A DNA stretch of 45,376 nucleotides, from the NCBI GenBank assembly GCA_031388885.1, contig JANMSC010000095.1, forward strand, positions 1 to 45,376, in the 5' to 3' direction. The notes under the pieces were generated by a model. It had not been told where the DNA came from, did not search any database, and saw only the letters and a list, made by a program, of their open reading frames with translations. This DNA is from Gemmatimonadales bacterium (GTDB lineage: Bacteria > Gemmatimonadota > Gemmatimonadetes > Gemmatimonadales > GWC2-71-9). The translations under genes and the position numbers were made by a program. Positions within the stretch are counted from its first letter, which is position 1. Every line of letters begins with the position of its first letter. This document shows positions 1 through 14,024 of the stretch, piece after piece.

Positions 1-1064
1 CGCGGCAGGAACTCGAGCGCCACGCCGCAGATGACACGCTGTCGCCAGTGGCACGCGCGGCGATGGCGATGGCGCGCCGACTCGACAAGATGCAGGACCG
101 GATCCTCCACGTACGCCTTGCGCCACTCGCCGAGGTGTTCGAGCGGATCCCCCCGATCGTGCGGGACCTTGCGCGGCAGCTTGGCAAAGAGGTCACGGTG
201 GAGATCGTCGGCGACGATCTCGAAGTCGACCGCGCGATTCTCGATCAATTGCCCGAACCGCTGATTCACCTGTTGCGCAATGCGGTCGACCATGGGATCG
301 AATCGCCCGACGATCGGCGCGCCCGGGGCAAGCGTCCCGCCGGAACGATCCGTGTCACGGCTCGACGTGATCGCGACGCGGTAGTGCTGGAACTCGTTGA
401 TGACGGCAACGGCATCGACCGCGAGCGGGTCGCGGACAAGGCGCGTTCGCTCGGACTGCTCGACGATGGCGTGGCGCTGAGCGACGACGGGCTCCTCGCG
501 ATCCTCGCCAAGCCGGGATTCAGCACGGCGACGCAGGTGACCGGCGTCTCCGGTCGCGGTGTCGGACTCGACGCCGTCGTCGTAAGGCTGCAAGGCGTCG
601 GCGCGTCGATCGCGATTACGACGGTTCCGGGCCGGGGCACGGTGTTCTCCATCCGGCTTCCCACCCGACTCGGCATCGTCCGCGCACTGGTGACCGGTAT
701 TGGTGAGGAGCGCTATGTCATGCCCCTCACGCATGTCACGGAACTGGTGCCGTTCGAGGACACGGCGGTGCGGGACGAGGAAGGACGCAGCCTGCTTGAT
801 GTGCAGGGCGAACGCGTGCCGGTGGTCGACATGCGCCGCTTGCTCAGCTTCCGGGGTCCACCGCCGCCCACCCGTCGACCGGCCGTGGTCTTCGAGGCGA
901 ATGGTCAGCGGATTGCGCTGCTCGCCGACGCGGTGCACGGCCAGGTCGATGCCGTCGTTCAGTCGCTGGAACGGCCCCGCGGTATGCCCCGGTGGATTAC
1001 CGGCGCGACGGTGCTGGACGACGGTACGCCGGCGTTGTTGCTGGACCTGGCGAGTGTGGTGTGA
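1..1064 (+). CDS. cheA: Chemotaxis histidine kinase CheA, C-terminal part (5' end lies outside the window; codon phase begins at nt 3)
   Basis: The frame is open from the window edge. The translation has HATPase boxes (HLLRNAVDHGIE, DDGNGID, GVSGRGVGLD) followed by a CheW-like domain (ERYVMPLTHVTELVPF ... ALLLDL). Confidence 0.9.
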   Translation, partial: RQELERHAADDTLSPVARAAMAMARRLDKMQDRILHVRLAPLAEVFERIPPIVRDLARQLGKEVTVEIVGDDLEVDRAILDQLPEPLIHLLRNAVDHGIESPDDRRARGKRPAGTIRVTARRDRDAVVLELVDDGNGIDRERVADKARSLGLLDDGVALSDDGLLAILAKPGFSTATQVTGVSGRGVGLDAVVVRLQGVGASIAITTVPGRGTVFSIRLPTRLGIVRALVTGIGEERYVMPLTHVTELVPFEDTAVRDEEGRSLLDVQGERVPVVDMRRLLSFRGPPPPTRRPAVVFEANGQRIALLADAVHGQVDAVVQSLERPRGMPRWITGATVLDDGTPALLLDLASVV

Positions 1065-1169
1065 CGCAAGAACAACAGGTCGATGGCCGAGAAGCGAGAT
1101 GTCCTACTCCGTATGCCGATTGCCCCACGGCCCACGGCTTGTACCAATCTTGACGAACACGGAGACACA

Positions 1170-1787
1170 ATGACACCCAACGACCTCGAAACCCTGCGGC
1201 GCGACGGCTTGCGTGAAGTGGCCTCGATCGGCGCCGGACACGCGGCGACGGCGCTGTCGCAGCTCACCAACCGCCGGATCATGATTTCGGTGCCGCAGGT
1301 TCGGCGAGTCGCATACGCCGACCTGCCGCAGATGCTGTCGACGTATGGTGATCACGTCGCGGTCGTGTCGATGCGGATGCTCGGTGACCTCACGGGTCGA
1401 TCGCTGCTGGTGTTTGGCGAAGACGACGCGACGCGCCTCTGCGACCTGATCCTGCGCCGCCCGATCGGCCCGCCTCGCGCACTCGGCGAGCTCGAGCGGT
1501 CGGGCCTCAAGGAGGTCGGCAACATCGTCTGTTCCGCGTACCTCACGGCGCTCAGCAACTTCATGGGCATGATGCTGCTCCCCTCGGTGCCAGCGCTCAC
1601 GATCGGGTCGATGCCGCAGGCCATTGCCAGTACCGTCGATCCCAACGAGGCCCAAACCGACCTGGTCTTTTGTGTGGACACGGCCTTCCGTGCCGACGGC
1701 GCCGAGATCCCGCTGACCGGGGCGTTTCTGCTGATGCCCGATCAGGCGTCGATCAAGGCGATCCTCGAGGCGATCCGGCTCGACTGA
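1170..1787 (+). CDS. cheC: CheC-family CheY-P phosphatase
   Basis: Two CheC-type repeats are present (DGLREVASIGAGHAATALSQL and SGLKEVGNIVCSAYLTALSNF...P). I prefer the ATG at 1170, which follows GGAGA, over the ORF-track start at 1083, but the start is not certain. Confidence 0.8.
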   Translation: MTPNDLETLRRDGLREVASIGAGHAATALSQLTNRRIMISVPQVRRVAYADLPQMLSTYGDHVAVVSMRMLGDLTGRSLLVFGEDDATRLCDLILRRPIGPPRALGELERSGLKEVGNIVCSAYLTALSNFMGMMLLPSVPALTIGSMPQAIASTVDPNEAQTDLVFCVDTAFRADGAEIPLTGAFLLMPDQASIKAILEAIRLD

Positions 1788-1788
1788 C

Positions 1789-2391
1789 ATGCCGGCGCCC
1801 CGCGCGCGGGACGCCGTCGTCGTCGCCGCCCTGCTCCGTCGCATCGGCGTCGACGATCCGGTGGCGTTGACCAATGCCGCGTGGTTCTCGGCGCGGCGGG
1901 GACTCACCGCTGCCGCACTCACGTGCGCCCAGCGTGCCGCATCGCTACCCGACGCGCCACGCGCCGCGCACCGCACCCTCCGCCAACTCCTCGCCGGCCG
2001 TGAGGCCGCGCTGCTGCTCTCGCTGCCCCTCGCGATGCATGATGCCGCCGACACCGCGGAGCGTGGGCCGGCGCTGGTCGCGACCGCCGTTGCACCGGAG
2101 GCAGTGCCGCTCACCGACGACGAGATGCTCGCGCTCGGGCGCACGCTCCTTGAGACGGGTCATCTTGCCGAATCGCTCGGGATGTTCGATGCGGTCCTGC
2201 GTCATCGTGGCACCGATCCAGTCGCGCTGTTCCATCGCGGAGTCGTGCTCGCGAAGCTGCGACGCTATGACGATGCACTCTCCGATTGGGGTGCGGTCGA
2301 GCGCGCCGATCCGGATGGTGTGCTTGGCACGCTGAGCCGCCGTCACGCCGCGTCGGCGAAGCAACTCGCCGAACTCTTCGCCACCCGATGA
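1789..2391 (+). CDS. Hypothetical protein with C-terminal TPR-like helical repeats
   Basis: The ATG lies 1 nt after the cheC stop. The C-terminal half (LETGHLAESLGMFDAVL...HRGVVLAKLRRYDDALSDW) looks TPR-like. The N-terminal half is low-complexity Ala/Arg. Confidence 0.55.
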   Translation: MPAPRARDAVVVAALLRRIGVDDPVALTNAAWFSARRGLTAAALTCAQRAASLPDAPRAAHRTLRQLLAGREAALLLSLPLAMHDAADTAERGPALVATAVAPEAVPLTDDEMLALGRTLLETGHLAESLGMFDAVLRHRGTDPVALFHRGVVLAKLRRYDDALSDWGAVERADPDGVLGTLSRRHAASAKQLAELFATR

Positions 2392-2401
2392 TCGGGCAGC
2401 C

Positions 2402-3319
2402 ATGCACGGCCCGCTGAGCGAGATCGGGCTCGCCGACGTGCTCCAGTTGCTCGAGCGTGGCAAGCGCACGGGGGTGTTGCGCGTGGTCGGACCCGATCCA
2501 ACGACACCGCGCACGCTGTACCTGCAAGCTGGCCGCATCGTCGCCCTTGATCCCGACGCGAGCGACGCGGCGCTCGCAGCCGCGCTCGCCATCCGGGCAC
2601 TCGCGTCCCTCGACCCCGCCACCCCGGAGGATGGGCCCAACGCGGTACCCCATGACGTGCGTGAGGGATTGCGTCGCCGTCTCGCGACTCGGACGCTCGC
2701 CGGGATGCTGCACTGGGTGCGAGGGCGCTTCGATTTTGAGGCGCATCCGGTGGGTGCTGGACCGCTATCCTTGTCGCCCGACGGTATCGTGTTCGATGTG
2801 GTTGATGCCGAAGGGCGCCGCAACGAGCTGGCAGCGGCCACCAACGACTTCCACGCCATCGCGGGGTTCGCGCCGCCCGACATCGTCGCCAGTGGTCCCG
2901 CACCATCACTGGGCGTGCTCGACTGGCGCATCCTCGATCTCGTCGATGGAGCACGCGACATCGCGTCCCTCGCCGCGACGCTCGGTGAGCCGGCTGAAGA
3001 CGTTGCGGATCGCGTCCGCGCACTTATGACCGCGGCTATACTTGTGCTGCAACCACCGTTGGCTGAAGCGGCGCGACTCGCGATCGATGCCGGTCGGTAC
3101 GACGAAGCGATCGCGCTACTCCGCTCTCGGGTGGCGACCGTACCGGACGAGAGCGCTGCCTGGCGTGCACTCGGGCTCGCCGAGGTTGGCGCCGGGCGGT
3201 TCGACCGCGCGGTCGATGCCTGGATGGCGTGGCGCAACGTGGCGCCCGCCAATCGCGACGAAGCCGATACCCTGATCCACGCCGCACGCACCATGCTCGA
3301 GGCCTTGCGAGAGCCGTGA
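2402..3319 (+). CDS. DUF4388/PATAN-like N-terminal domain protein with C-terminal TPR
   Basis: The N-terminus MHGPLSEIGLADVLQLLERGKRTGVLRV matches the DUF4388 signature (G.L....l.dvlQll...k.tG.L). The C-terminus has TPR-like repeats (GRYDEAIALL..., AWRALGLAEVGAGRFDRAVDAW). Confidence 0.75.
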   Translation: MHGPLSEIGLADVLQLLERGKRTGVLRVVGPDPTTPRTLYLQAGRIVALDPDASDAALAAALAIRALASLDPATPEDGPNAVPHDVREGLRRRLATRTLAGMLHWVRGRFDFEAHPVGAGPLSLSPDGIVFDVVDAEGRRNELAAATNDFHAIAGFAPPDIVASGPAPSLGVLDWRILDLVDGARDIASLAATLGEPAEDVADRVRALMTAAILVLQPPLAEAARLAIDAGRYDEAIALLRSRVATVPDESAAWRALGLAEVGAGRFDRAVDAWMAWRNVAPANRDEADTLIHAARTMLEALREP

Positions 3320-4065
3320 ACGAGTTCGCCCCGTTTCCGACGTCCGGCCCGCGAGGCCACGCGTTCCTCGAGTTGGGGGAGCGCCTGCGTCGGCGTGGCC
3401 AGCTTGATGCGGCCGCCACGGTCGCCAGCGCGGGACTGTCACACTATCCCGCCCTCGCCGACGCCCACGACTTGCTCGGGCGGATCCGCGCCGACCTGGA
3501 TGACGACGACGCCGCCACCGCGGCGTGGCAGTCGGCACTCGAGTGTGATCCCGGGCACGCGGGTGCCCGCAAGGGACTCGCGTTTCTCGCGTTTCGGCGC
3601 CGCGACTTCGCCGCGGCCGAGCGCCAGCTCGAGGCCGCCGCGTCGCAGGCCCCGCACGATGTCACGCTGCTCGCCGCCCTCGATCGCGTGCGCGTTGCGC
3701 GTCCCGCCAGTGAAGAATCGCTTCGCCTCGACGATCCGTCGAGCGGCCTCGTGCTGTTCGATGCAGAGGGGATGCGCCTGATCGGTGGCATCAGCCTGAC
3801 CGCTGGCGATGCCACGGCAGATGCCGTTGCAGCGGAAGGCGCCGGCTTCGTCCGGGATGCTGCTCGGGCCGCGCGGTTGCTTGACCTCGGGGCGTGGCGT
3901 CAACTTGTGGTCGAGGCGCCCGATGCGCGAATCGCATTGCTGCCGGTCGGCCGGGATGCCTCGCTGCTTGTGTGGCGGCCGGCAACAACCCCACTCGGCC
4001 GACTGGTCGCGACGGCAACTCGCGCCGGCGCTGCGGCTCGCGAGTGGCTCGAGAGGATGGCATGA
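3316..4065 (+). CDS. TPR - Roadblock/LC7 fusion protein
   Basis: The GTG at 3316 overlaps the upstream stop (GTGA). The N-terminal half has TPR repeats (AHDLLGRIRADLDDDDAATAAWQSALECDP, ARKGLAFLAFRRRDFAAAERQL). The C-terminal half (LVLFDAEGMRLIGGIS...ARIALLPVGRDASLLV) has the Roadblock/LC7 (MglB-like) pattern. The ORF-track start at 3229 would overlap the upstream gene by 91 nt. Confidence 0.7.
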   Translation: MNEFAPFPTSGPRGHAFLELGERLRRRGQLDAAATVASAGLSHYPALADAHDLLGRIRADLDDDDAATAAWQSALECDPGHAGARKGLAFLAFRRRDFAAAERQLEAAASQAPHDVTLLAALDRVRVARPASEESLRLDDPSSGLVLFDAEGMRLIGGISLTAGDATADAVAAEGAGFVRDAARAARLLDLGAWRQLVVEAPDARIALLPVGRDASLLVWRPATTPLGRLVATATRAGAAAREWLERMA

Positions 4066-4415
4066 GCGCCGATCCGTGGCGTCGCATCCTCGATGAAGTC
4101 ACCGGCGTGGCCGGCGTGCGCGGCGCGCTCATTGTGTCGAGCGAGGACGGACTCGTCGTCGCCGAAGCCGCGATGGCGTCACTCGAGACGGCAGACGTGG
4201 CCGCGCTCGCGGCTGGGCTGGCAAGCCGCGCCGGGCGTGTGGCGCGCGTCGCCGGAGCAAGTGCCCCGACGTCGGTCCGACTCACCGCCGAGCGCGGCAG
4301 TGTGATTGCGGTGGCTGGTGACGCGCAACTCTGGCTGGTCGCGATTACTGATCCGTCTGCCGAGCTGGGTCGGTTGCGTATCCTCCTCGGCGATCTCGCC
4401 GCGACCCTCGGCTGA
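4062..4415 (+). CDS. Roadblock/LC7 (MglB-like) domain protein
   Basis: ATGA start/stop overlap with the upstream gene. The translation MSADPWRRILDEVTGVAGVRGALIVSSEDGLVVAEA...SVIAVAGDAQLWLVAITD is a typical single-domain Roadblock protein. Confidence 0.8.
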   Translation: MSADPWRRILDEVTGVAGVRGALIVSSEDGLVVAEAAMASLETADVAALAAGLASRAGRVARVAGASAPTSVRLTAERGSVIAVAGDAQLWLVAITDPSAELGRLRILLGDLAATLG

Positions 4416-4882
4416 TGCGCGTCCTCGAGCCGTGGCTGGCGGACCCCCTCGCCGAACTGCTGCGGGAATCGTCGGCGCGGCTCGCGCTGGTGATGACGTC
4501 GTCGGGGCAGGTCATCGCTCAGCACGGATTCACGCGATCGCTTGACGTGATGGCGGCCGCTGCGCTGGGTGCCGGCATCCTCGCCACCACCGGCGAGCTC
4601 GCCCGTGTGGTCGGCTCAGGTCGGGGATTCGGCGCGGTGGTGCACCAGGGATCGGCACAGGGCGTCTGGCTCGCCGGGTTCGACACGCCGCGGGGTCGCT
4701 GGATCGGCCTTGTCGTGTTCGGACGCGAGTCGTCGGTCGGCCTCGTGCGCATGTTCTTCGAGCGATTTGCCGACACGGTGACATTGGTCGCTCCGCCGGT
4801 GACCGCGGTGCGCGAGGTGCTCGCGGAGGGGTTCGAACGCGAACTCGACGCATCCCTCCGCGCCCTGTTCGGGCGGTCCTGA
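4415..4882 (+). CDS. Second stand-alone Roadblock/LC7-like protein (divergent)
   Basis: TGATG overlap with the upstream gene. The translation LALVMTSSGQVIAQHGF...GAVVHQGSAQGVWLAGF...WIGLVVFG fits the Roadblock fold pattern. A longer C-terminal tail is present. Confidence 0.65.
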   Translation: MRVLEPWLADPLAELLRESSARLALVMTSSGQVIAQHGFTRSLDVMAAAALGAGILATTGELARVVGSGRGFGAVVHQGSAQGVWLAGFDTPRGRWIGLVVFGRESSVGLVRMFFERFADTVTLVAPPVTAVREVLAEGFERELDASLRALFGRS

Positions 4883-4884
4883 CG

Positions 4885-5502
4885 ATGGCACGACTCGCAG
4901 CCGACGGGATGTCGCTGACGGTCACGCTCGTGATCTTCGGCCCATCGCGCTCGGGCAAAAGTTCGCTGTTGCGCGGCGTACACGATCGACTCGGCGACGG
5001 GCCCGGTACGGCCCGCATGGCCGACGCGACACCGTTCAGTCCACTCGACTGGCTGGCGATCGATCTCGGCGTCATCGGTGGCCGTAACGCGACCGTCCAC
5101 CTGTATGCGGTGCCGGGCCTCGCGGCGTACGACAGCACCCGTCGATTGTTGCTCAGCCAAGCGGACGGTGTCGTCTTCCTGGCCGATTCGCAGGGCAGCC
5201 GACTCGAGGCGAACCTTGATGCGCTGCGGCAGTTGCAGGATCACGTGCTCGCGCGCGAGGGCGACATGCGCGAACTCCCGATAGTGTTCCTCTACACCAA
5301 GCAGGATCTTCCCAGTGATCTGGTGCTACCACTCGCCGCGCTCGACGAAGCGCTGAACTTTCGCAACGCGCCAAGTTTTACGGGCGATGCACTGCGAGGC
5401 ACCGGCGTGCGCGACGCGTTGCAGGCCGCACTCACCCTGGTGCTTCGTCGCCTCGCGGTGACCACCGAACCCGCCGATGTCGCCGGGTTCGGGGCCGGGT
5501 GA
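4885..5502 (+). CDS. mglA: MglA-family Ras-like small GTPase
   Basis: P-loop GPSRSGKS. HLYAVPGLAAYDSTRRLLLSQADGVVFLADSQ aligns with M. xanthus MglA [32 protein letters not shown] (MglA sequence recalled from memory). The G4 motif is TKQD. The start lies 2 nt after the upstream stop; an alternative ATG is at 4909. Confidence 0.85.
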   Translation: MARLAADGMSLTVTLVIFGPSRSGKSSLLRGVHDRLGDGPGTARMADATPFSPLDWLAIDLGVIGGRNATVHLYAVPGLAAYDSTRRLLLSQADGVVFLADSQGSRLEANLDALRQLQDHVLAREGDMRELPIVFLYTKQDLPSDLVLPLAALDEALNFRNAPSFTGDALRGTGVRDALQAALTLVLRRLAVTTEPADVAGFGAG

Positions 5503-5509
5503 GGCCGTC

Positions 5510-7477
5510 ATGCTGAATCCGCACGCGCGGTTCGCATCGTTCGTCGTCGGATCGTCGAACCGACTTGCAGCCACAGCCGCCAAGGCGGTCGCCGAGGCGC
5601 CAGGAGCGGCGTATAACCCGTTGTTCATCTACGCCACGCCAGGCCTCGGCAAGACCCACCTGCTGATGGCGATCGGCCACGAGGCGCAGGCGATCGATCC
5701 GGCGCGTACCGTGGAGTACGTCACGGTGGATGACTTTGTCGAGGCGTATCACGCGGCCCTCGCGGCGGGGCAAGCCGAGGCCTACCGGCGCCGATTCACG
5801 GAGGCCAGCCTTGTCCTGCTCGACGATGCGCAGTTGCTCTCCGATCGGCGTGAGCTGCAATCGGAGTTGCTCCGCCTGATCGACGTGTTGACCGCGGCGG
5901 ATCGACAGATTGTGCTCGCCGGCGACCGTCCGCCCGAGGAAATCCAGTCGCTCGATGAACGCTTGATTCGCCGCTTCGCGGGTGGACTGGTGATTGACAT
6001 TGGTGCACCAGACTACGAGACCCGTCTCGCGATTCTCTCGCGACGCGCCAAGGATCGGCATGCATCGTTTTCGCCGGAGGTGTTGTCGACCGTTGCGGAA
6101 TCGCCGATTGCCACGGTGCGTGAGCTGGTTGGTGCGTTCAACCGACTCGTGGCACAGCAAGCGGTACAGGCCGAACCGCTCACCGCCGGTGAGGCGCGCG
6201 CGCTGCTCGAGGCGCTGGGGCATCGCCGCGACAAGGGCGACGGTCCAGGCATGATCGTTGGTCGTGACACGGTGCGGTCGACCGACGGGTACCAGCCCGT
6301 GGAGCGCGACGAGTTTTCCGATTTTCTCACCGACCTCTCCACCACCGTTGGTCAACAAGTCGACCGCTGGCGTCAACGCGTGACCGAATCGTCGTTGCGC
6401 CATGCGGCGGCGGGATTTCGCACCGCGCGCCTCGATGCGTTGCTCGCGACCGACATGGCTGGTGATCCGGAGGATGCGCTGGCGGCGTTCGAAGCCGACG
6501 TCGCCTCGCTGCGGGCGCTGCAACTGGAACTGGAGCACGTCGCGCCGTCGCTGACGAGCGACGCCGCGTTGCACGATCCGGACCGAGTCGGCGACGCCGA
6601 AGCCCTGGTGGCAGAGGCTCGCGAGGCGGGCGAACCGTTACCGGGTCCGTCCCCCAGGAGCACGCTCGATGCGTTCGCCACCGGTCCCTCGACGCGATCC
6701 GTGGTTGAAGCGATTCGTGCGGCGGCTTCGTCACCCGGCCACCGCTACAATCCGCTGGTGATCGTTGGTCGGCCTGGCACAGGCAAGTCTCATCTGCTGC
6801 ATGCGTTCGGCCACGCCCTCAAGGCAGCCGGCCTGGCCCGCGTCGCGGTACTTGATGCATCCCAGTTCGTTGACGGGTTGGTCGGCTCCCTCGGCGAGGG
6901 GACCGTGGCCACATGGCGCCAGCGCTTGCGGCGTCTCGACGCGCTCCTGATTGACGACGTCCATGTGCTTGGGGGCAAGGAGCGCAGCCAGGAAGAGCTC
7001 TACCTCGTGTACAACCTGTTGCTCGAATCGGGACGCCAGATGGCGTTCACCGCCGTGTCTGCACCGGCACAGCTCACGGGGTTCGAGCAGCGCCTTGCCA
7101 CGCGTCTCGCGGGGGGGTTGGTGATCGAACTGGGGCCACCCGACCGCGAGGCAAAAGTGATCGAGGTGGCGCGCCTGCTCGGCGCGGCAGCCGCGGAAGA
7201 CGATCTCGTGGAGTACCTCGCGTCACGGCCCGCGTCGTCGGTGCGTGAAACCCAGCAACTGGTCCAGCGCGTGATCGTGGCAGCGGATGCGCGTCAGGCC
7301 ACGCTCTCGCTGGCACTGGTCCGGACCATCATCGAGGGTGACCCGGCCGAAACGCCCCGCGTCCCGCGGCGCGGCAGCGGCTTGCTCGCACCAGCAAGCG
7401 GTGCGATTCGCTCGCGCGAGAAAATGGTGGAGACGTGGCCCGATATGGCTGAGCGGCTGCTCGAGGAGTGGCGCTGA
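5510..7477 (+). CDS. Tandem DnaA/Hda-like AAA+ ATPase (two complete DnaA domain-III modules, no domain IV)
   Basis: Module 1 has Walker A PGLGKT (nt 5639-5656), Walker B LVLLDDAQ, sensor I VLAGDRPP, box VII ERLIRRFAGGLVIDIGAPDYETRLAIL and sensor II VRELVGAFNRL. Module 2 has Walker A GRPGTGKS (nt 6767-6790), Walker B ALLIDDVH, FTAVSAP, QRLATRLAGGLVIELGPPDREAKVIE and VRETQQLVQRV. I prefer the ATG at 5510, which follows GGTGAGG, over the ORF-track start at 5477. Confidence 0.85.
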   Translation: MLNPHARFASFVVGSSNRLAATAAKAVAEAPGAAYNPLFIYATPGLGKTHLLMAIGHEAQAIDPARTVEYVTVDDFVEAYHAALAAGQAEAYRRRFTEASLVLLDDAQLLSDRRELQSELLRLIDVLTAADRQIVLAGDRPPEEIQSLDERLIRRFAGGLVIDIGAPDYETRLAILSRRAKDRHASFSPEVLSTVAESPIATVRELVGAFNRLVAQQAVQAEPLTAGEARALLEALGHRRDKGDGPGMIVGRDTVRSTDGYQPVERDEFSDFLTDLSTTVGQQVDRWRQRVTESSLRHAAAGFRTARLDALLATDMAGDPEDALAAFEADVASLRALQLELEHVAPSLTSDAALHDPDRVGDAEALVAEAREAGEPLPGPSPRSTLDAFATGPSTRSVVEAIRAAASSPGHRYNPLVIVGRPGTGKSHLLHAFGHALKAAGLARVAVLDASQFVDGLVGSLGEGTVATWRQRLRRLDALLIDDVHVLGGKERSQEELYLVYNLLLESGRQMAFTAVSAPAQLTGFEQRLATRLAGGLVIELGPPDREAKVIEVARLLGAAAAEDDLVEYLASRPASSVRETQQLVQRVIVAADARQATLSLALVRTIIEGDPAETPRVPRRGSGLLAPASGAIRSREKMVETWPDMAERLLEEWR

Positions 7478-9096
7478 TGGCGATCAAGGGGTCACTCAAG
7501 GAAGCGTCGCTCGCCGACGTGGTGCAGCTGCTGTTCCTCGGCGGGCGTACCGGCTGCCTCTCGGTCGCGAGCGAGCGCAACTTCGGCTCGATCTGGTTCG
7601 ATGACGGATGGATTTCGTTCGCCGGTATGGTGTCGCGGCAGGATCGTCTGGGTGAGCGATTGGTTGCCGCGGGCACGTTGTCGGCGGCACAGCTCGACCA
7701 GGCGATCGCGACCCACGGTGCGACTGCCGGTCGGCGGTTGGGCAGCGTGCTGGTGCAGCTCGGGTTTCTTGGTATGCGCGAACTTGAACTGGAGCTGCGT
7801 CGGCAAGTCGAGGAGACGGTGTACACGCTCTTCACGTGGACGAGCGGCACGTTCTCCTTCGAGGCCGGCGTCAAGCCGGAAGACGCCGAAGCGACGTTGC
7901 GCCTGAATCCCGAGGGACTGTTGCTCGAGGGGGCACGACGCGTTGACGAATGGAGCGTCATCGCAAAAAAGATTCCGTCCCTTGACGTCGTGTACGCGCG
8001 GGAAGGCGAAGCCCGGCCGGCGGCCGATGATGCCGAACTGGTCGACATCGAAAAGCTGGTGTTGCCGCTGCTCGATGCGGTCCGCACGGTGCGTGCCGTC
8101 ATGGACGCGACCGGCCTCACGGATTTTGAGGTGTGCCGGGCACTCTACGGACTGCTGTCCGCGGGGCGGATCCGCCGGGTGGCGACCGCGGCGGCGCCGG
8201 CACCGCGGCAGGGTGCGGCACGTGTCGAAGAACATCGCAACCTTGGCATCGCGTTCTACCGCACCGGGATGCTGGCCGAAGCGGAGCGCGAGTTCCGGCG
8301 CGTGGCCGAATTGCAGCCGCAGGGCGGGGAAGGGCCGTTCCATCTCGGGTTGATCGCGCTGCGACAGGCACGGTGGAGCGATGCGCTGGAGGCGTTCATG
8401 CTTGCGGCGGACCGCGCCGGACCGCGCACTGCGGTGCTCCACAACCTGGCACTCGCGCTCGAGGCCATGGGCCGGCTCGACGAGGCAGACGCGGCGTTTG
8501 CCGACGCGCTCGAACGAGATCGCGACGATGCCCGCGTGTGGACTGGATGGGGCCTGCTGGCCCTCCGACGCAACGACGCGCCGCGTGCGCTGGAGCGATT
8601 CGCGCAGGCGCGCGATCGCTTTGATCAGCAGGTGGCGCCGGCACGCTGGTACTGGGGGTGCGGCTGGGCACAGGCCCTTTCTGAGACGTGGCCCGACGCG
8701 CTCAACACGGTCCGGGAAGGGGTTGCAGCGTATCCCGATCATCCGGTGCTCCGCACGACCCTGGGCGTGCTGCTCGAGGCGACCGGCGAAGTTGGCGAAG
8801 CCGAGGCGCACCTCCGCCACGCACTGGGCGAGGATCCAACCATTCCGCAGATCTCGAAGAACCTCGGCGACCTGCTCTACCGGGCCGGCCGGTGGGATGA
8901 GGCCGAAGAGTCCTACGAGCGCGCCGCCAAGCTGGCACCGTCGCTTGGTGACGACTTGTACTTCAAGCTCGGCAATCTCGCGTGTCGGCGGGGTGACTTC
9001 GCGGTGGCTCGGCGGCATTGGGGCGACGCGATCGCAATCAATCCAGAGCACGCGCTGGCGCGGGCCAACCTCGCGGGGTCGGGGACCGCGGCATGA
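7477..9096 (+). CDS. DUF4388/PATAN-like domain protein with long TPR array
   Basis: The ATG overlaps the upstream stop (TGATG); a GTG at 7468 is an alternative. The N-terminus is MAIKGSLKEASLADVVQLLFLGGRTGCLSV. At least 6 TPR-like repeats follow (e.g. HRNLGIAFYRTGMLAEAEREFRRVAELQP, SKNLGDLLYRAGRWDEAEESYERAAKLAP). Confidence 0.8.
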   Translation: MAIKGSLKEASLADVVQLLFLGGRTGCLSVASERNFGSIWFDDGWISFAGMVSRQDRLGERLVAAGTLSAAQLDQAIATHGATAGRRLGSVLVQLGFLGMRELELELRRQVEETVYTLFTWTSGTFSFEAGVKPEDAEATLRLNPEGLLLEGARRVDEWSVIAKKIPSLDVVYAREGEARPAADDAELVDIEKLVLPLLDAVRTVRAVMDATGLTDFEVCRALYGLLSAGRIRRVATAAAPAPRQGAARVEEHRNLGIAFYRTGMLAEAEREFRRVAELQPQGGEGPFHLGLIALRQARWSDALEAFMLAADRAGPRTAVLHNLALALEAMGRLDEADAAFADALERDRDDARVWTGWGLLALRRNDAPRALERFAQARDRFDQQVAPARWYWGCGWAQALSETWPDALNTVREGVAAYPDHPVLRTTLGVLLEATGEVGEAEAHLRHALGEDPTIPQISKNLGDLLYRAGRWDEAEESYERAAKLAPSLGDDLYFKLGNLACRRGDFAVARRHWGDAIAINPEHALARANLAGSGTAA

Positions 9097-9935
9097 CCGA
9101 CGAGACCGTGACGGGGTTGCGCGCGGACTATCAGCGCCTGGCCGACGCGATGGCTGGTGAGCCCGATCCGCGCGCGCGGGCAGCGCTCAAGGCAGAGATC
9201 GTTGCCCTGTTCCGTCGCACCGAGACGACGATCGCTGACCTCGCGTCATTCAAGGAAACGATTCGCGATCTCGTCGCACAGTACAAGTCGCTTCCCGACG
9301 CGACCAACGCCGCTCCGTCGGTCCGCCACGATCACATCGGTGCGTCCACCTTCATCGACCGTGGCTGGACGGAGCTGGCCGCCGGGAACTGGAGCGCTGC
9401 CGAGACGATGTTGCGACGTGCCAGCGAGCTCGACGCCACGAGTACCAGCGCGCAGTCGCTACTGGGGTGGGCGCTGGTGCACCAGGACCAGCTCGACGAC
9501 GCCCTCGAGCTGTGCCTCCGGGTGGTCCAGCGCGAACCGGAGCACGGCCTCGCGCACGTGGCCATCGGGGTGGTGTGTCTGCGCAAGGGGATCGTGGGCG
9601 AGGCGATCGAGCACCTGTCCCGGGTCGCCGCGAACGGCGGTGATCCACGGGCGGCGCTGTACGCGAACTACTGGCTTGGCGTGGCGTATCTGGAGCGCGA
9701 GATGTACGGCGACGCAGTGGAGTTTCTGCGTCGGGCACTGGCGCTGGGCCCGAACCTCGGCGAAGGATGGGCCGAACTCGGGCGGGGGCTCTGGTTCCTT
9801 GGACACGCAGCCGATGCCAGGGAAGCGTGGACGGTGGGTTCGCGGGTCCGTTTCTCGCCGCACGCGATGCGCTGCGCGGCAATGCTGGAGACGACGACTG
9901 CTGGAGGATCACCACCACGTCTCACGTCGCACTGA
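9093..9935 (+). CDS. TPR repeat protein
   Basis: ATGA overlap with the upstream stop. TPR-like repeats are present (RGWTELAAGNWSAAETMLRRASELD, YWLGVAYLEREMYGDAVEFLRRALALGP). The last ~35 codons do not look TPR-like and overlap the next ORF. Confidence 0.7.
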   Translation: MTDETVTGLRADYQRLADAMAGEPDPRARAALKAEIVALFRRTETTIADLASFKETIRDLVAQYKSLPDATNAAPSVRHDHIGASTFIDRGWTELAAGNWSAAETMLRRASELDATSTSAQSLLGWALVHQDQLDDALELCLRVVQREPEHGLAHVAIGVVCLRKGIVGEAIEHLSRVAANGGDPRAALYANYWLGVAYLEREMYGDAVEFLRRALALGPNLGEGWAELGRGLWFLGHAADAREAWTVGSRVRFSPHAMRCAAMLETTTAGGSPPRLTSH

Positions 9936-10855
9936 TTGCGCTGTTCCTGCTGCAGGCAACCCAGCCCCGCCCGACGCGAGACGCACTGGTCCGCCTCGAG
10001 ATTGGCAACATCACCGTCATCACGGATCGTCGTCACGTGGCGCTTGCGACCGCACTGGCGGAGGCCGCCAGTCGGTCCAGACGGTGGCTCGGGCTTGGGT
10101 TCGTCGATCCGGGTCCGCTGGTGCTTGCGGTCGCTCACGATGGGGCGATGCTGGGGCGGTGGTCGCAGGGGCGTATCCCGGGGTGGGGCGCGGGCTTCGC
10201 CTTGCCGAGCGCACGCACGATCGCCATTCGGGCCGACGGTGGTGACGCGTTCGGGACCCTGCGCCATGAGTTGGCGCACATCGCGCTGCACCAGCGCGTG
10301 AAAGGGCGCGTACCGCTCTGGTTCAGTGAGGGCTACGCGGTGCTTGCCGCCGGTGAGCATGGCCGCATGGACGCGCTACAACTCAACCTCAGCGTCGTCG
10401 CCGGGCGGGTGCCCGACCTGCGCGGACTCGACGCCGCCCTCCGTGCGGGCGCGAGCGACGCCGAGGCGGCCTACGCTCTCGCCGGGTCGGCGGTCGGCGA
10501 ACTTGCTCGGCGGAACCCTGGTCGGACGCTCGACCCGCTCCTCGCGCAGCTCGCGGCCGGTGCGTCGTTCGACGCTGCCGTACTGGCCACGACGGGGTTG
10601 ACGCCGGACCGGTTTGACGAGGTCTGGTACCGGAGCGTGCGCCGCCGGTACAACTGGGGGATCTGGTTCATCACCGGCGGCGTTTGGCTTCTGGTGGCCG
10701 TGGGGCTTGGTGTGTTGGCGATCTGGCGACGGCGGTACGACGCGCCGCGACGGGCTGCTCTCGACATCGGCTGGTCACTGCCGCCTGACGAGGAACATGA
10801 CAATATCATTACTGTTGCCGGAGCGCCGCTTGACCGTTCTGACACCGATCGCTAG
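9767..10855 (+). CDS. Peptidase MA-like zinc metallohydrolase with C-terminal TM anchor (start uncertain)
   Basis: HExxH (LRHELAHIALH) plus the downstream WFSEGYA glutamate motif. C-terminal TM segment NWGIWFITGGVWLLVAVGLGVLAIW. Candidate starts are ATG 9767, GTG 9827, or a non-canonical CTG at 9932 that overlaps the upstream TGA. Confidence 0.6.
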   Translation: MGRTRAGALVPWTRSRCQGSVDGGFAGPFLAARDALRGNAGDDDCWRITTTSHVALIALFLLQATQPRPTRDALVRLEIGNITVITDRRHVALATALAEAASRSRRWLGLGFVDPGPLVLAVAHDGAMLGRWSQGRIPGWGAGFALPSARTIAIRADGGDAFGTLRHELAHIALHQRVKGRVPLWFSEGYAVLAAGEHGRMDALQLNLSVVAGRVPDLRGLDAALRAGASDAEAAYALAGSAVGELARRNPGRTLDPLLAQLAAGASFDAAVLATTGLTPDRFDEVWYRSVRRRYNWGIWFITGGVWLLVAVGLGVLAIWRRRYDAPRRAALDIGWSLPPDEEHDNIITVAGAPLDRSDTDR

Positions 10856-10866
10856 CCTCAAGGGCT

Positions 10867-11058
10867 ATGACACAGACCGCCCCCAGGGCCGGGAACGCAG
10901 CTCCGCTGTTTACCCGTCGCAATCTCCTGCTGATCGGCGTCTCCCTGGCGACGATTGCAGCAGGCTACCTCGTGCTGACGACGGGGGCCGCGAGCGCGGC
11001 GGCCGTGCTCCTGGTGATCGGCTATTGCGTCCTCTTTCCGCTGGCCCTCGTCCTCTGA
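10867..11058 (+). CDS. Small two-TM membrane protein (DUF3098-like pattern)
   Basis: 63 codons with two hydrophobic helices (LLLIGVSLATIAAGYLVL, AAAVLLVIGYCVLFPLALVL) and G/C-rich third positions. The family assignment is from memory only. Confidence 0.45.
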   Translation: MTQTAPRAGNAAPLFTRRNLLLIGVSLATIAAGYLVLTTGAASAAAVLLVIGYCVLFPLALVL

Positions 11059-11069
11059 TCGTGCGACCT

Positions 11070-11143
11070 GGGCGAATAGCTCAGTTGGTTAGAGCGCCTG
11101 CCTTACACGCAGGATGTCGGGGGTTCGAGTCCCTCTTCGCCCA
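11070..11143 (+). tRNA. tRNA-Val (anticodon TAC)
   Basis: Cloverleaf read by eye: acceptor GGGCGAA/TTCGCCC, D-arm GCTC-AGTTGGTTA-GAGC, anticodon arm CCTGC-CTTACAC-GCAGG, T-arm GGGGG-TTCGAGT-CCCTC, discriminator A. CCA is not encoded. Confidence 0.9.
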
Positions 11144-11207
11144 CTGGCGTGCAGGAACTGCCCGCCGCCCCGTCTAGTTCAGGGACGCACCCCACGGAGG
11201 CAACAGG

Positions 11208-12926: not shown

Positions 12927-12973
12927 CCCTTCCCAAAGCGTATCAGGCCGCCTACTTTGGGGCCTGGTTGTGA

Positions 12974-13047
12974 GGGGCTGTAGCTCAGTTGGTTAGAGTG
13001 CCGCACTGTCACTGCGGAGGTCGCGGGTTCGAGCCCCGTCAGCCCCG
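12974..13047 (+). tRNA. tRNA-Asp (anticodon GTC)
   Basis: Acceptor GGGGCTG/CAGCCCC, D-arm GCTC-AGTTGGTTA-GAGT, anticodon arm CCGCA-CTGTCAC-TGCGG, T-arm GCGGG-TTCGAGC-CCCGT, discriminator G. Confidence 0.9.
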
Positions 13048-13103
13048 TTCTCGCCACCCCGCCCGGTATGATTCTGGCGGGGTGGTTTGTTTTCCTTGGA
13101 GCC

Positions 13104-14024
13104 ATGAGTGACGTCGAGATGCATCACGTGCCCGTCCTGCTCGAGCCGATCATCGCCCGGGCCCGCGGGAGCGTGCGCGTGGTGGACGGGACGCTCGGGC
13201 ACGGCGGGCACGCGGCGGCGTTTCTCGCTGGTGGCGCCGAGGTGCTCGGCATCGATCGCGACCCTGACGCCATCCGCACGGCGCAGTCGCGAATCGCCGT
13301 TGGTGCCCGGATCCACTATTTGCAGGCGCAGTACGCATCCGACGAGGCGCTCGCCGCCATCCAGCGCTTTCACCCCGACTTTGCGCTCCTCGATCTCGGC
13401 GTGTCGTCGCGCCAGCTCGACGACGAACGTCGTGGGTTCACGTTCCGCCCCGGTGCACCGCTCGACATGCGCATGGGACCTGACGCTCAAACCGCCGCCG
13501 AGTGGCTGATGACAGCCGATGAAGCCACCATTGCGACCGTCTTCCGTGACTACGGCGACGAACCGCGTGCCCGGCGTCTGGGCGCCGAAGTCGTGCGCCG
13601 TCGCGGTAATGCCGCGTTCGCCACCAGCGATGATCTGGTCAATGCCATTCGGGCGGCCTTGGGTCCGAGGTCGGGTCCGGCAGAGTTTGCCCGGATCTTT
13701 CAGGCTGTGCGGATCGCGGTCAATGACGAACTCGTCGGCTTGCGGCGTGCGCTCCCGGCGATCCGCGAGGCGCTCGGCCCAGGCGGAACACTCGCCGTGA
13801 TCAGTTATCATTCGGGCGAGGATCGACAGGTGAAGGGCGCGTTCCGCGAGTGGAGCGCGGGGTGCGTCTGTCCGGGCGGATTGCCCCAGTGCGTGTGTGG
13901 TCACGTGCCGTTGGGTATTGCCCATCCTCGCAAGGCCGTCGTGCCGTCCGATAGCGAAATCGCTGCCAACTCCCGTGCCCGCAGCGCCAAGCTGCGCTTC
14001 TTCCGGAATCGCGATGCAGGTTAG
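13104..14024 (+). CDS. rsmH: 16S rRNA (cytosine1402-N4)-methyltransferase RsmH (MraW)
   Basis: HVPVLLEPI, DGTLGHGGHA, LLDLGVSSRQLD, SYHSGEDRQVK. The ATG at 13104 is preceded by GGAG. Confidence 0.93.
   Translation: MSDVEMHHVPVLLEPIIARARGSVRVVDGTLGHGGHAAAFLAGGAEVLGIDRDPDAIRTAQSRIAVGARIHYLQAQYASDEALAAIQRFHPDFALLDLGVSSRQLDDERRGFTFRPGAPLDMRMGPDAQTAAEWLMTADEATIATVFRDYGDEPRARRLGAEVVRRRGNAAFATSDDLVNAIRAALGPRSGPAEFARIFQAVRIAVNDELVGLRRALPAIREALGPGGTLAVISYHSGEDRQVKGAFREWSAGCVCPGGLPQCVCGHVPLGIAHPRKAVVPSDSEIAANSRARSAKLRFFRNRDAG

Follow-up and report, generated by a model that had tools for sequence, protein, structure and literature searches.

The first 10,855 nt of the window (the whole stretch of DNA analyzed here, 45,376 nt from a Gemmatimonadales bacterium) carry 12 genes on one strand with junctions that overlap or nearly abut. 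Taken together with the gene order in relatives, these 12 genes make up one conserved Gemmatimonadota operon, whose co-transcription we infer. On balance, we favor the reading that the locus is a Frz/Mgl-like switch, in which a chemosensory phosphorelay and a polarity module would serve a polar machine, most probably type IV pili. The new part is a tandem DnaA-domain-III ATPase with a conserved placement in che operons, of which we found no description in the literature searched.

The chain of 12 same-strand genes from cheA/cheC to a peptidase gene, proposed in a first-pass annotation, was borne out by re-reading the sequence, as were its junctions: 1 nt at 1787/1789, GTGA at 3316, ATGA at 4062, TGATG at 4415, 2 nt before 4885, 7 nt before 5510, TGATG at 7477, and ATGA at 9093. 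At six junctions, the stop codon of one gene overlaps the start codon of the next. A 10-nt gap at 2391/2402 was missing from the list, and cheA and cheC are probably separated by ~105 nt. Within the region, internal promoter-like and terminator-like sites show no excess over shuffle expectation, and base composition is uniform. According to the gene tables of relatives, the operon starts upstream of the sequenced stretch with cheY and, in relatives, cheW. Downstream, a small conserved two-helix membrane ORF of 63 aa (10867–11058; this and all other features are on the + strand) comes after the peptidase gene in L002, L003, and L005, the relatives checked, and the unit is closed by this ORF and a tRNA-Val (UAC) found by ARAGORN at 11070–11144, which is the downstream limit of the protein-coding unit. 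The next gene (11208–12926; Pfam TPR_19/TPR_14) encodes a TPR protein, secreted or periplasmic, whose N-terminus bears a signal-like hydrophobic segment as judged by eye. It is a conserved neighbor between the module and rsmH plus the dcw cluster and is probably transcribed separately.

The first-pass guess of Gemmatimonadota as the source proved right. Gene order is conserved on ~35 independent Gemmatimonadota contigs at anchor-protein identities of 32–78%, an arrangement far beyond chance. On all of these contigs, the module has ileS-lspA-rluD to one side and the dcw cluster to the other, and in most lineages cheR-cheD-cheB lies downstream of it. Because these three genes sit beyond the module (L011, L019, L020, L023-27, L029-32, L034-37, L040, and L042), the module is nested inside the che operon. 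In a second deep lineage (L009 and L092; "Cloacimonetes bacterium 4572_55"), cheW/Y/A/C, a big TPR gene, a PATAN gene, and the tandem DnaA gene form one string without GTPase or Roadblock genes, in a different chromosomal context away from the dcw site. In the L005/L006 lineage, cheA and cheW are missing from the cluster and cheY, cheC, and the entire module remain; in L093, the tandem DnaA and big TPR genes occur without che genes. Genes for type IV pili, gliding, or flagella are present neither in the cluster nor beside it, and its flanks are housekeeping genes and the dcw cluster; the context therefore gives no pointer to the output.

Searches of Pfam, NCBIfam, and the PDB upheld every domain call made earlier, with matches for CheA, CheC, TPR, two DUF4388/PATAN, three Roadblock, one MglA-family GTPase, and two Bac_DnaA domains, and also for Peptidase_MA_2. 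The window opens in the 3′ part of cheA (1–1064), encoding the HATPase_c and CheW-like P5 domains (Pfam HATPase_c 2e-14, CheW 3e-26; NCBIfam CheA 9e-79). On the 99.25%-identical contig L001, full-length cheA encodes 502 aa, with an Hpt domain containing HTIKG and no P2 domain. The cheC gene (1170–1787; Pfam CheC 2e-16; NCBIfam CheC_Thtogales 8.6e-41), of the CheY-P phosphatase family, had been given a start at 1083; the start is probably 1170, yielding 205 aa in agreement with the L001 gene call and with orthologs of 205–207 aa, which gives the cheA-cheC gap noted above. Taking the CheC active-site motifs to be E-x2-N-x22-P, we read motif 1 off the translation as E-x2-S and motif 2 as an intact E-x2-N-x22-P. 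CheY has the standard phospho-acceptor residues.

Three further genes encode TPR proteins or a peptidase. The small TPR protein of 200 aa (1789–2391; Pfam TPR_16/TPR_2) is, from tblastn synteny, a shortened counterpart of an 820–900 aa TPR protein at the same position in distant relatives, big TPR genes being present in L005, L011, L009, L092, and L093. A second TPR protein, whose N-terminal segment is helical (9093–9935; Pfam TPR families), is syntenic in relatives. The last gene encodes a Peptidase_MA_2 zinc peptidase with HELAH (9827–10855; Pfam 35.8 bits, cut-off 32.4), which carries a transmembrane helix at its C-terminus together with an RRRxDAPRRAAL tail that is conserved in orthologs. 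Its start is uncertain: canonical in-frame starts occur only at 9767, 9827, and 10037, none abutting the TPR stop at 9935, and a non-canonical codon near 9932 is a further candidate.

Of the three Roadblock/LC7 proteins, the first (3316–4065) combines TPR_2 with a C-terminal Roadblock domain (Robl_LC7 26.9 bits, cut-off 23), the C-terminal part having a weak PDB match to 7f8m. The second is a single-domain protein of 117 aa (4062–4415; Pfam Robl_LC7 1.1e-9) that matches PDB Roadblock proteins at 3e-4 and weaker, and may take an MglC-like position in a complex. The third (4415–4882), with a Roadblock fold and a C-terminal extension, falls under the Pfam cut-off yet matches MglB of Myxococcus xanthus (PDB, 2.4e-10), MglB of Thermus thermophilus (PDB, 2e-6), and the NCBIfam MglB profile (4.8e-7); by homology, it is an MglB. 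It is also the best-conserved module protein in the window's clade, with a mean pairwise identity of 73.8% (clade A).

The adjoining MglA-family small GTPase (4885–5502; PDB MglA 8e-30) is degenerate in the window's clade. Its P-loop is kept and G4 reads TKQD, but the arginine finger position is Ala and AVPGL replaces TVPGQ at G3. In the ortholog alignment, the GTPases of distant relatives (clade B), encoded next to MglB, show TDRT and TVPGQ and are canonical MglA proteins of group 1, and identity to M. xanthus MglA is 57% for the clade-B ortholog and 36% for the window GTPase. In the window's clade, the GTPase evolves fast and has lost residues for MglB-stimulated hydrolysis, namely the finger arginine and the catalytic glutamine; a classical GTPase cycle is therefore unlikely there, and the protein is most likely a non-hydrolyzing adaptor. 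This clade has a reduced system, without cheRDB, with the big TPR protein cut to 200 aa, and with a GTPase lacking the catalytic Arg and Gln. The earlier proposal of a GTPase/ATPase switch tied to a chemosensory kinase is supported in part: the coupling to che genes is stronger than the window alone could show, as che genes bracket the module in most lineages, and the GTPase switch is doubtful in the window.

The two PATAN (DUF4388)-TPR proteins differ in the helical insertion of the PATAN domain. In PATAN1 (2402–3319; Pfam DUF4388 9.9e-14), the MshEN-like motif is gone in the window's clade, with no RLG motifs in the sequence; the clade-B counterparts score 30–32 bits on NF053729. PATAN2 (7477–9096; Pfam DUF4388 3.7e-33) scores 39.5 bits on this NCBIfam profile (cut-off 38), and its insertion (aa 55–112) matches residues 7–63 of MshE (PDB 5htl_A, E 4.3e-6). 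This insertion is a tandem MshE-type, putatively c-di-GMP-binding motif and is kept in Gemmatimonadota orthologs. The tandem RLGxx(L/V/I)(L/V/I)xxG...Q pattern is shared with MshEN of Vibrio cholerae MshE (5HTL), which binds c-di-GMP (PMC5013675), whereas binding by PATAN2 is predicted. The MshEN motif forms the N-terminus of a secretion/pilus ATPase, whereas that of PATAN2 lies inside the PATAN domain of a TPR protein, and its first copy in the window ends in H rather than Q.

The tandem ATPase (5510–7477, 655 aa; Pfam Bac_DnaA 1.2e-85 in two stretches) consists of two complete DnaA ATPase modules (IIIa plus lid), each matched by the NCBIfam DnaA and Hda profiles, with a conserved, family-specific helical linker between them (~aa 273–373) and a conserved acidic-hydrophobic C-terminal tail. 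In the window, as in DnaA and Hda, both halves have Walker A, Walker B, the sensor II arginine, and box VII; across the family alignments, neither half shows any variation in Walker A or Walker B, and the arginine fingers are not conserved. Unlike DnaA, the protein has neither domain I nor the DnaA-box-binding domain IV, as judged from profile searches and the family alignment, and its gene lies in che operons and not at the origin. Unlike Hda, it has no Hda-type clamp-binding motif by eye. In the predicted structure (AF2 pLDDT 84), each half has the DnaA domain III fold (Foldseek, Bacillus subtilis DnaA domain III, TM 0.95, rmsd 1.4 Å, 40% identity), and no tandem arrangement of this domain is among the Foldseek PDB matches listed. 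In all lineages examined, the gene adjoins one for a big TPR protein, and in all except one it also adjoins a PATAN gene.

Nothing known of MglA systems predicts a DnaA-derived ATPase. This counts against our main reading, as do the absence of pilus, gliding, flagellar, and MCP genes from the cluster, the degenerate GTPase of the window's clade, and the lineages L005/L006 and L093 with few or no che genes. A cell-cycle or chromosome regulator is an unlikely alternative. The tandem protein would then co-assemble or compete with DnaA or with single-stranded origin DNA in an Hda-like manner, and Che, MglA, and PATAN would couple polarity to replication or division, for instance in budding cells. 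The near-perfect match of each half to DnaA domain III and the invariant Walker motifs fit this idea, as does GKERSQEE, almost invariant in the C-terminal half, which we take to be the ssDNA-contacting B-motif with R245 of Escherichia coli DnaA that is lost in Hda. Also in its favor are the invariable position of the Gemmatimonadota cluster directly upstream of the dcw division cluster, two bactofilin genes near the ATPase gene in L093, and the reported interaction of the PATAN-REC protein PatA of Anabaena with the divisome (PMC7380572). However, domains I and IV are absent, the N-terminus opens with domain III and shows no clamp-binding motif by eye, and the arginine fingers vary family-wide. 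The dcw position may be a frozen syntenic block, as the cluster lies elsewhere in L009 and L092, and the remaining partners (MglA, MglB, PATAN, and Che) point to polarity or motility.

Somewhat less probable still is an ordinary flagellar chemotaxis pathway, in which the embedded proteins are accessories that place or regulate the flagellar apparatus and not pili. Gemmatimonas aurantiaca has been described as flagellated, CheC, CheD, CheR, CheB, CheW, CheY, and CheA make up a complete set such as flagellar CheC/CheD-type systems have, and the phospho-acceptor residues of CheY are standard. Yet in the L005/L006 lineage, where cheA and cheW are lacking from the cluster, the module persists in full along with cheY and cheC. 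Genes of the fli, flg, or mot groups do not adjoin the cluster, and no MCP gene lies in or beside it. Where studied, moreover, MglA/MglB and PATAN proteins act on type IV pili or gliding (PMC7519303; 10.1101/2021.06.11.447907).

It is very unlikely that the locus is no functional unit at all, only a che operon side by side with unrelated TPR, Roadblock, GTPase, and ATPase genes, their tight spacing reflecting a compact genome. Conserved order alone is no proof of shared function, since the block is syntenic also with the unrelated housekeeping flanks ileS, lspA, rluD, and rsmH. Against this reading, che genes flank the module on both sides in most lineages, six junctions have start/stop overlaps, che, big TPR, PATAN, and tandem DnaA genes recur in another chromosomal context in the second lineage, and Frz-MglA/MglB and PATAN-REC fusions provide precedents. 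An anti-phage or conflict system of NTPases, TPR proteins, and a peptidase, suggested by faint STAND-type and P-loop similarities of the ATPase and by the peptidase at the cluster end, is effectively refuted by a weak, P-loop-level PADLOC match (mad8, 28 bits, no stretch passing alone), by vertical conservation at one chromosomal site phylum-wide that is neither patchy nor mobile, and by the uniform base composition.

The first-pass annotation did not recognize the combination of genes as a described system. In the literature searched, this holds for the tandem DnaA ATPase and its conserved placement in che operons, but other parts of the combination have been described. Frz is known to be functionally linked to MglA/MglB in Myxococcus (PMC3441718). 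The proximity of MglB and MglA genes to PATAN genes was pointed out by Makarova 2006 (cited in PMC4316618) and by Wuichet and Sogaard-Andersen 2014, whose supplementary table lists Gemmatimonas aurantiaca GAU_1409 as 'PATAN>MglA>-PATAN>'; such proximity is frequent (10.1101/2021.06.11.447907). As in the M. xanthus Frz/MglA/MglB/MglC/RomR/SgmX system (PMC3441718, PMC4719450, PMC7519303, PMC11580455), a CheA/CheW/CheY/CheR/CheB-type pathway is tied to a group-1 MglA, with the Roadblock GAP MglB, a further Roadblock paralog, a large TPR protein as GTPase partner, and PATAN proteins in the vicinity of SgmX, where a study of SgmX and T4aP considered them among candidate partners (PMC11580455). In M. 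xanthus, frz, mglBA, mglC, romR, and sgmX are unlinked, whereas the Gemmatimonadota operon holds all in one; it has no RomR/RomX and no FrzZ-type or CheA-REC fusion protein, adds CheC, CheD, and the tandem DnaA-type ATPase, and in the window's clade its MglA homolog is catalytically degenerate. Cyanobacterial Tax/Pix systems likewise have a Che-like pathway with PATAN output (PatA-type PATAN-REC) and a PATAN insertion formed by the helical repeat of T4P/T2SS ATPase N-termini (10.1101/2021.06.11.447907). Here, PATAN is fused to TPR and not to a receiver, CheY is separate, MglA, MglB, Roadblock, and the ATPase are extra, and a PilB/PilC target is assumed by analogy. Actinobacterial conservons (CvnA-D; mfp operon) also co-encode a histidine kinase, Roadblock, and MglA-family GTPase (PMC4316618), but their kinase is a membrane sensor kinase and not CheA, their DUF742 protein (CvnC) and group 2 GTPase (GTPGQ) are absent from the Gemmatimonadota operon, and they have no PATAN, TPR, or DnaA-type ATPase.

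In the Frz/Mgl-like switch that we favor, the phosphorelay would comprise CheW, CheY, CheA, and CheC, with CheR, CheD, and CheB in most lineages, and the polarity module the MglA-family GTPase, MglB, and two more Roadblock proteins, with the TPR scaffolds, two PATAN-TPR proteins, and the tandem ATPase as partners. The stand-alone CheY would be phosphorylated by CheA and dephosphorylated by CheC, and CheY-P would act on the PATAN, Roadblock, and GTPase proteins. Contact between the separate CheY and PATAN is expected because the two domains are fused in cyanobacterial PatA-type regulators. PATAN is an output domain that binds PilB1 and PilC, and the repeat that forms its insertion also occurs at the N-termini of T4P/T2SS ATPases (10.1101/2021.06.11.447907). 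A c-di-GMP input could enter via the MshE-type motif of PATAN2, and the tandem DnaA ATPase may dock on the big TPR and PATAN partners as an ATP-dependent element for assembly or scaffolding. The switch would thereby set or invert the activity or polar placement of its target machine, most probably type IV pili, by analogy with the action of Frz on MglA/MglB in Myxococcus and the binding of PilB/PilC by PATAN in Synechocystis.

The window opens with an unbroken chain of plus-strand genes, read from the sequence as spanning positions 1-10855. In order, these encode the 3′ part of cheA, cheC, a small TPR protein, PATAN-TPR protein 1 (PATAN1, 2402-3319), a TPR-Roadblock protein, a Roadblock protein, an MglB-like Roadblock protein, an MglA-like GTPase, a tandem DnaA-type ATPase (655 aa, 5510-7477), PATAN-TPR protein 2 (PATAN2, 7477-9096), a TPR protein and a Peptidase_MA_2 protein. 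The tight junctions reported in the first-pass annotation are all present: a 1-nt gap at 1787/1789, GTGA at 3316, ATGA at 4062, TGATG at 4415, a 2-nt gap at 4885, a 7-nt gap at 5510, TGATG at 7477 and ATGA at 9093. To these we add, as a correction, a 10-nt gap at 2391/2402. Internal promoter-like and terminator-like sites within the cluster region show no excess over shuffle expectation.

Profile and PDB searches bore out every domain assignment made at first pass. The CheA C-terminus carries HATPase_c and CheW-like domains (Pfam), and CheC is matched at 2e-16 by Pfam and 8.6e-41 by NCBIfam. DUF4388/PATAN (PF14332) scores 51.9 bits in PATAN1 and 114.6 bits in PATAN2 (cut-off 25); both proteins end in TPR repeats, not in a receiver domain, and CheY (121 aa) supplies the receiver as a protein of its own. 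The first two Roadblock proteins reach 26.9 and 38.3 bits on Pfam Robl_LC7 (cut-off 23). The third, encoded at 4415-4882 immediately 5′ of the GTPase gene, scores 18.5 bits on the same model; we identify it as an MglB homologue because it matches solved MglB structures in the PDB (2.4e-10) and the NCBIfam MglB model (4.8e-7). The GTPase finds almost nothing on Pfam, and phmmer aligns it with Myxococcus xanthus MglA over its whole length (residues 11-190, 8e-30). The 655-aa protein contains two Bac_DnaA stretches (Pfam, 1.2e-85), and the last protein of the chain scores above the Peptidase_MA_2 cut-off, with HELAH and a C-terminal transmembrane helix.

The unit starts 5′ of the window, which holds only the C-terminal part of CheA. 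CheY and full-length CheA are seen in the closest relative, the same-species contig L001 (JANOIP010000533, GCA_031407795.1; 99.25% DNA identity), and in other relatives, and a cheW gene 5′ of cheY appears in L002, L003 and further contigs of other species. CheY carries the usual acidic-pocket, phospho-acceptor Asp and Lys residues, and the phosphorylation site of CheA reads HTIKG. Of the two CheC active-site motifs, the second is intact and the first has Ser for Asn. The cheC start is most likely at 1170, giving a protein of 205 aa, since the gene call in the 99.25%-identical contig agrees and orthologues are 206-207 aa long.

At the 3′ end, a start scan of the peptidase gene found no canonical start codon adjoining the TPR stop at 9935, and the GTG at 10037 is preceded by IGNITVITD, a conserved stretch of the N-terminus (window 9767-10037). 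The gene therefore starts either well upstream, with 109-169 nt of overlap with the TPR gene, or at a non-canonical CTG or ATT at 9932-9937. It is followed by a 63-aa membrane ORF (10867-11058) with two predicted helices and a conserved C-terminus (...LLV(I/L)GY(C/V)V(L/F)(F/V)P(L/I)(A/G)L...), which is also present in L002, L003 and L005. A tRNA-Val (UAC) gene at 11070-11144 separates this ORF from a gene for a secreted TPR protein. Long antisense ORFs, such as those on the minus strand at 1945-3360 and 7492-9051, were rejected as genes and are attributed to shadows of 68% G+C DNA, because all profile matches and all cross-genome conservation are on the plus strand.

We compared gene tables of eleven contigs and carried out a tblastn synteny screen of 43 loci. 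Wherever the contig is long enough, Gemmatimonadota loci, including those of Longimicrobiales, share the order (ileS-dksA-lspA-)rluD, (cheW-)cheY-cheA-cheC, TPR, PATAN-TPR, TPR-Roadblock, Roadblock, mglB-like, mglA-like, tandem DnaA, PATAN-TPR, TPR, peptidase, secreted TPR, and then rsmH and the dcw genes. Where the ATPase shares 40-56% identity with that of the window, most lineages have cheR-cheD-cheB between the PATAN2 gene and the TPR gene that otherwise follows it (L011, L019, L020, L023-27, L029-32, L034-37, L040 and L042). The module of TPR, PATAN, Roadblock, MglB-like, MglA-like and ATPase genes is therefore nested within the che operon. The window's own clade (ATPase identity of at least 62%) has no cheRDB in the cluster, and its first TPR gene encodes 200-375 aa as against ~890 aa elsewhere. 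The L005/L006 lineage keeps cheY and cheC and is without cheA and cheW. No MCP gene was found in any cluster examined. In two MAG contigs, L034 (~9381-13636) and L039 (~8738-9964), the GTPase and PATAN2 frames seem frameshifted, which is more likely to reflect assembly error than real pseudogenes.

All Gemmatimonadota contigs of sufficient length have the module directly 5′ of rsmH and the dcw cluster. In the window, the regions 12984-34254 and 37452-38366 hold the dcw cluster, with rsmH, ftsI (with a PASTA domain), Mur ligase genes, ftsA, ftsZ and an M23 peptidase gene, and after it an SRP54-type GTPase gene that is probably ftsY. Two minus-strand genes, for a class-V aminotransferase (24616-25908) and a CDP-alcohol phosphatidyltransferase (27185-27805), split the cluster between its mur/ftsW part and murC-ftsA-ftsZ.

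Outside Gemmatimonadota, the ATPase gene recurs in a lineage of which 'Candidatus Cloacimonetes bacterium 4572_55' is the named member. There, at another chromosomal site, it stands with cheW-cheY-cheA, a PEP-CTERM-type ATPase gene, a cheW-like gene, cheC, a gene for an 826-aa TPR protein and a PATAN gene, and Roadblock and GTPase genes are absent. The PEP-CTERM-type ATPase of this che operon (272 aa; L009 4035-4853, L092 3743-4561) is most like the XrtA/PEP-CTERM system-associated ATPase TIGR03015, at 254 bits, below the cut-off of 324.5, and the operon also encodes a CheW-domain protein of 310-344 aa. In L093 (3765-4667 and 7373-12094), from a Gemmatimonadota-labelled MAG (GCA_003697105.1), a gene for an 867-aa TPR protein precedes the tandem DnaA gene and there are no che genes beside them; the 200-aa and 729-aa products encoded 3′ of it have no Pfam match. 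Two bactofilin genes lie a few genes away in the same MAG. In this survey, a large TPR protein and a PATAN protein are the ones that accompany the ATPase most persistently, usually in a che operon.

The first-pass annotation had read the cluster as an unfamiliar combination resembling a GTPase/ATPase switch complex, either controlled or read out by a chemosensory kinase. Its domains and its status as a conserved unit stand; the combination proves to be partly known already, and a GTPase switch is doubtful in the window's clade. The window GTPase has a P-loop, GPSRSGKS, of the pattern GxxxxGK[ST]. However, the arginine-finger position beside the G2 threonine (R53 in M. xanthus) is occupied by Ala, and G3 reads AVPGL, not TVPGQ, leaving no catalytic glutamine. 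Group 1 has been defined by an arginine finger in all members and by TVPGQ (Wuichet and Sogaard-Andersen 2014; PMC4316618), so that the window GTPase lacks two defining features.

The arginine finger is missing throughout the window's clade. The P-loop is retained there, the G2 threonine is gone in most members, G4 is T/S/A-K-x-D, and G3 varies in the orthologue alignment among AVPGL, AIPDQ, VVPVG, GIPAE, AVSGS and others. Orthologues in the other clade do have the finger (TDRT), and canonical group-1 MglA (TDRTLFFDFLP, LYTVPGQ, NKQD) is found in lineages with cheRDB as well as in L005, L008 and L033. Identity to M. xanthus MglA is 57% for the protein of L011 and 36% for that of the window. 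In the window's clade, GTPases share a mean 48.6% identity in pairwise comparison, as against 73.8% for the MglB homologue and 70.3% for PATAN2. Among five module proteins that were compared, the GTPase ranks as the best conserved in the other clade (74.5%), where the MglB homologue stands at 47.5% and PATAN2 at 55.1%. The window GTPase is best viewed as an MglA-derived protein that is probably non-hydrolysing and probably acts as a constitutive adaptor. GAP activity of MglB on the GTPases of this clade is doubtful, because they do not have the catalytic residues.

PATAN2 offers a possible second input. Its residues 55-112, RLGERLVAAGTLSAAQLDQAIATH-GATAGR-RLGSVLVQLGFLGMRELELELRRQ, contain the tandem 24-residue motif RLGxx(L/V/I)(L/V/I)xxG(L/V/I)(L/V/I)xxxxLxxxLxxQ by which MshEN domains are recognized. 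This segment passes the NCBIfam c-di-GMP motif model NF053729 (39.5 bits, cut-off 38) and aligns with residues 7-63 of Vibrio cholerae MshE (5HTL, 5htl_A; E 4.3e-6), and the tandem motif of MshE has been shown to bind c-di-GMP (PMC5013675). The motif makes PATAN2 a putative c-di-GMP receptor. It is retained in Gemmatimonadota orthologues and partly degenerate in the lineage of L009. In PATAN1 the corresponding insertion is degenerate, with the motif lost in the window's clade and a weaker version (30-32 bits) elsewhere. The MshE-type motif is located in the helical insertion of the PATAN domain. This insertion has been described as a repeat that T2SS and T4P ATPases share at their N-termini, and PATAN binds PilB1 and PilC (10.1101/2021.06.11.447907). 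A search with the N-terminal domain of PATAN2 returned Gemmatimonadota fragments only and no characterised relatives.

An AlphaFold2 model of the ATPase, built from 45 sequences (mean pLDDT 84), has AAA+ modules at ~1-238 and 396-609 and a confident helical linker at 273-373, with disordered stretches at 240-273 and 613-635 and short C-terminal helices. Foldseek ranks domain III of Bacillus subtilis DnaA first (8bv3_A; TM 0.95 on target, rmsd 1.4 A, 40% identity); further DnaA structures come next, and Hda is a more remote match. Among the matches listed, none has a tandem DnaA-domain-III architecture, and p97-type tandem AAA+ proteins match only loosely. Both halves have a Walker A (GK[TS]) and a Walker B (DD) with little or no variation. 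All 45 aligned sequences share the sensor II arginine of the first half; the window protein has the box VII arginines, which are not conserved in the family as a whole. The C-terminal half carries a nearly invariant GKERSQEE, which we take to be the ssDNA-contacting B-motif of E. coli DnaA (R245) that is missing from Hda. The linker (EF..FL..V..QV..WR...W..G..T.RLE) and the C-terminal tail (SG....R.REK.V.WP...R..EE[WLIF]x) are family-specific and have no Pfam match. Because the C-terminus is acidic-hydrophobic and TPR neighbours are always present, we suggest that it may serve as a TPR-clamp ligand.

The family is distinct from both DnaA and Hda. True DnaA matches bear PF08299 and PF11638, and the tandem proteins have neither; searches of the window ATPase for domain IV (Bac_DnaA_C) and domain I (DnaA_N) gave no match. 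Hda is a single domain III with an N-terminal beta-clamp motif, and the window protein is instead tandem, begins with domain III itself, shows no clamp motif on inspection by eye and scores 158.7 on TIGR03420 (Hda), below the cut-off of 194.8. Exact look-up of the window's ATPase and GTPase gave no match, and the cluster representative P0001 led to L001. The best 120 ATPase homologues are full-length or nearly so at 54-100% identity, and a search of 1.84 billion representatives yielded end-to-end relatives of ~650 aa down to ~32% identity; all named ones among the former, and the named ones among the latter, are Gemmatimonadota. Past ~28 two-domain relatives, the similarity search reaches ordinary single-domain DnaA. 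In a single-protein genome scan, about half of 80 loci were ordinary dnaA caught via GKERSQEE and were set aside, and no cultured Gemmatimonas genome was among the loci. The tandem family is almost confined to Gemmatimonadota and one related lineage, and it is nearly always found in che operons.

Frz signals to MglA and MglB in Myxococcus (PMC3441718). The Roadblock protein MglB is the GAP for MglA (PMC3199381), its Roadblock paralogue MglC binds MglB (PMC7949163), and for type IV pili MglA has an effector in the TPR protein SgmX (PMC7519303). By analogy, the cluster is most likely a self-contained version of a Frz-Mgl-type circuit, for which we infer all contacts, the output machine and the role of the ATPase. 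CheA would phosphorylate CheY, and CheC would take the phosphate off. The separate CheY and PATAN proteins would contact each other, as expected from the fusion of PATAN and receiver domains in cyanobacteria. The signal would then reach the MglB/Roadblock/GTPase complex and the TPR scaffolds, with c-di-GMP entering via PATAN2, and would determine the activity or polar location of a machine, type IV pili being the most probable one; none of the flanking genes points to the output machine. The tandem DnaA protein would be an ATP-dependent assembly element bound to PATAN and TPR proteins. A reduced form of the circuit would operate in the window's clade.

The main alternative is that the ATPase acts in the cell cycle or on the chromosome. 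Its near-perfect DnaA modules, the retained B-motif and the constant site upstream of dcw all speak for such a role, and a study in Anabaena reports an interaction of PatA with the divisome (PMC7380572). However, the ATPase is without any DNA-binding domain, and the second lineage carries the gene at a different chromosomal position. Gemmatimonadota include budding bacteria. In a more specific version, which we consider improbable, the tandem protein would be an AAA+ signalling element derived from the replication initiator that passes chemosensory, c-di-GMP and polarity input, received via PATAN and TPR proteins, to DnaA or to ssDNA at the origin, and would also replace the decayed MglA as the switch in the window's clade. 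If true, replication or origin positioning would be coupled to cell polarity.

A flagellar chemotaxis pathway is possible, since most lineages carry a full set of che genes, but it agrees poorly with the lineages in which the module is kept without cheA and cheW. Mere adjacency of unrelated genes is unlikely given that che genes bracket the module, codons overlap and the association recurs at another chromosomal site. A defence system was excluded for practical purposes by a PADLOC scan.

The overall logic of the cluster follows a known pattern. Reports from 2006 and 2014 already noted PATAN genes in the vicinity of MglB and MglA genes (PMC4316618), and the 2014 supplementary table of Wuichet and Sogaard-Andersen gives 'PATAN>MglA>-PATAN>' for GAU_1409 of Gemmatimonas aurantiaca T-27 and 'MglB>MglA>' for a second pair, GAU_1115. 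The gene after MglA in the GAU_1409 string is presumably the tandem DnaA ATPase, and the published table suggests that cultured G. aurantiaca carries the cluster. An article on Frz evolution (PMC4546325) has no mention of Gemmatimonadota or of gene linkage. The cluster also differs from known systems. Actinobacterial conservons have a CvnA-type sensor kinase, DUF742 and a group-2 GTPase (GTPGQ), whereas the window has CheA, no DUF742 match and a G3 that is not GTPGQ; PatA-type response regulators join PATAN to a C-terminal receiver, whereas the PATAN proteins of the window are fused to TPR repeats. In the literature searched, four features appear to be undescribed: a whole Mgl-type module nested in a che operon across the phylum; a family of tandem DnaA-domain-III proteins that accompanies che, TPR and PATAN genes in two deep lineages; an MglA homologue that has decayed in one clade where MglB and the ATPase are conserved; and the extra Roadblock and TPR-Roadblock proteins.

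Cooperation among Ras-like GTPases, Roadblock GAPs, PATAN proteins and chemosensory pathways is known mainly from Myxococcus genetics, where the genes are scattered. Their occurrence as one unit across an entire phylum provides a parts list of proteins expected to cooperate, including two extra Roadblock proteins, several TPR scaffolds, a putative c-di-GMP-sensing PATAN protein and a peptidase. If cultured G. aurantiaca carries the cluster, it can be tested. The window's clade, in which GTPase catalytic residues are lost and MglB and the ATPase are strongly conserved, amounts to a natural experiment. The operon-level wiring and the DnaA-derived ATPase are noteworthy for specialists in bacterial polarity, and a role for such an ATPase in a signalling operon would be new biology.
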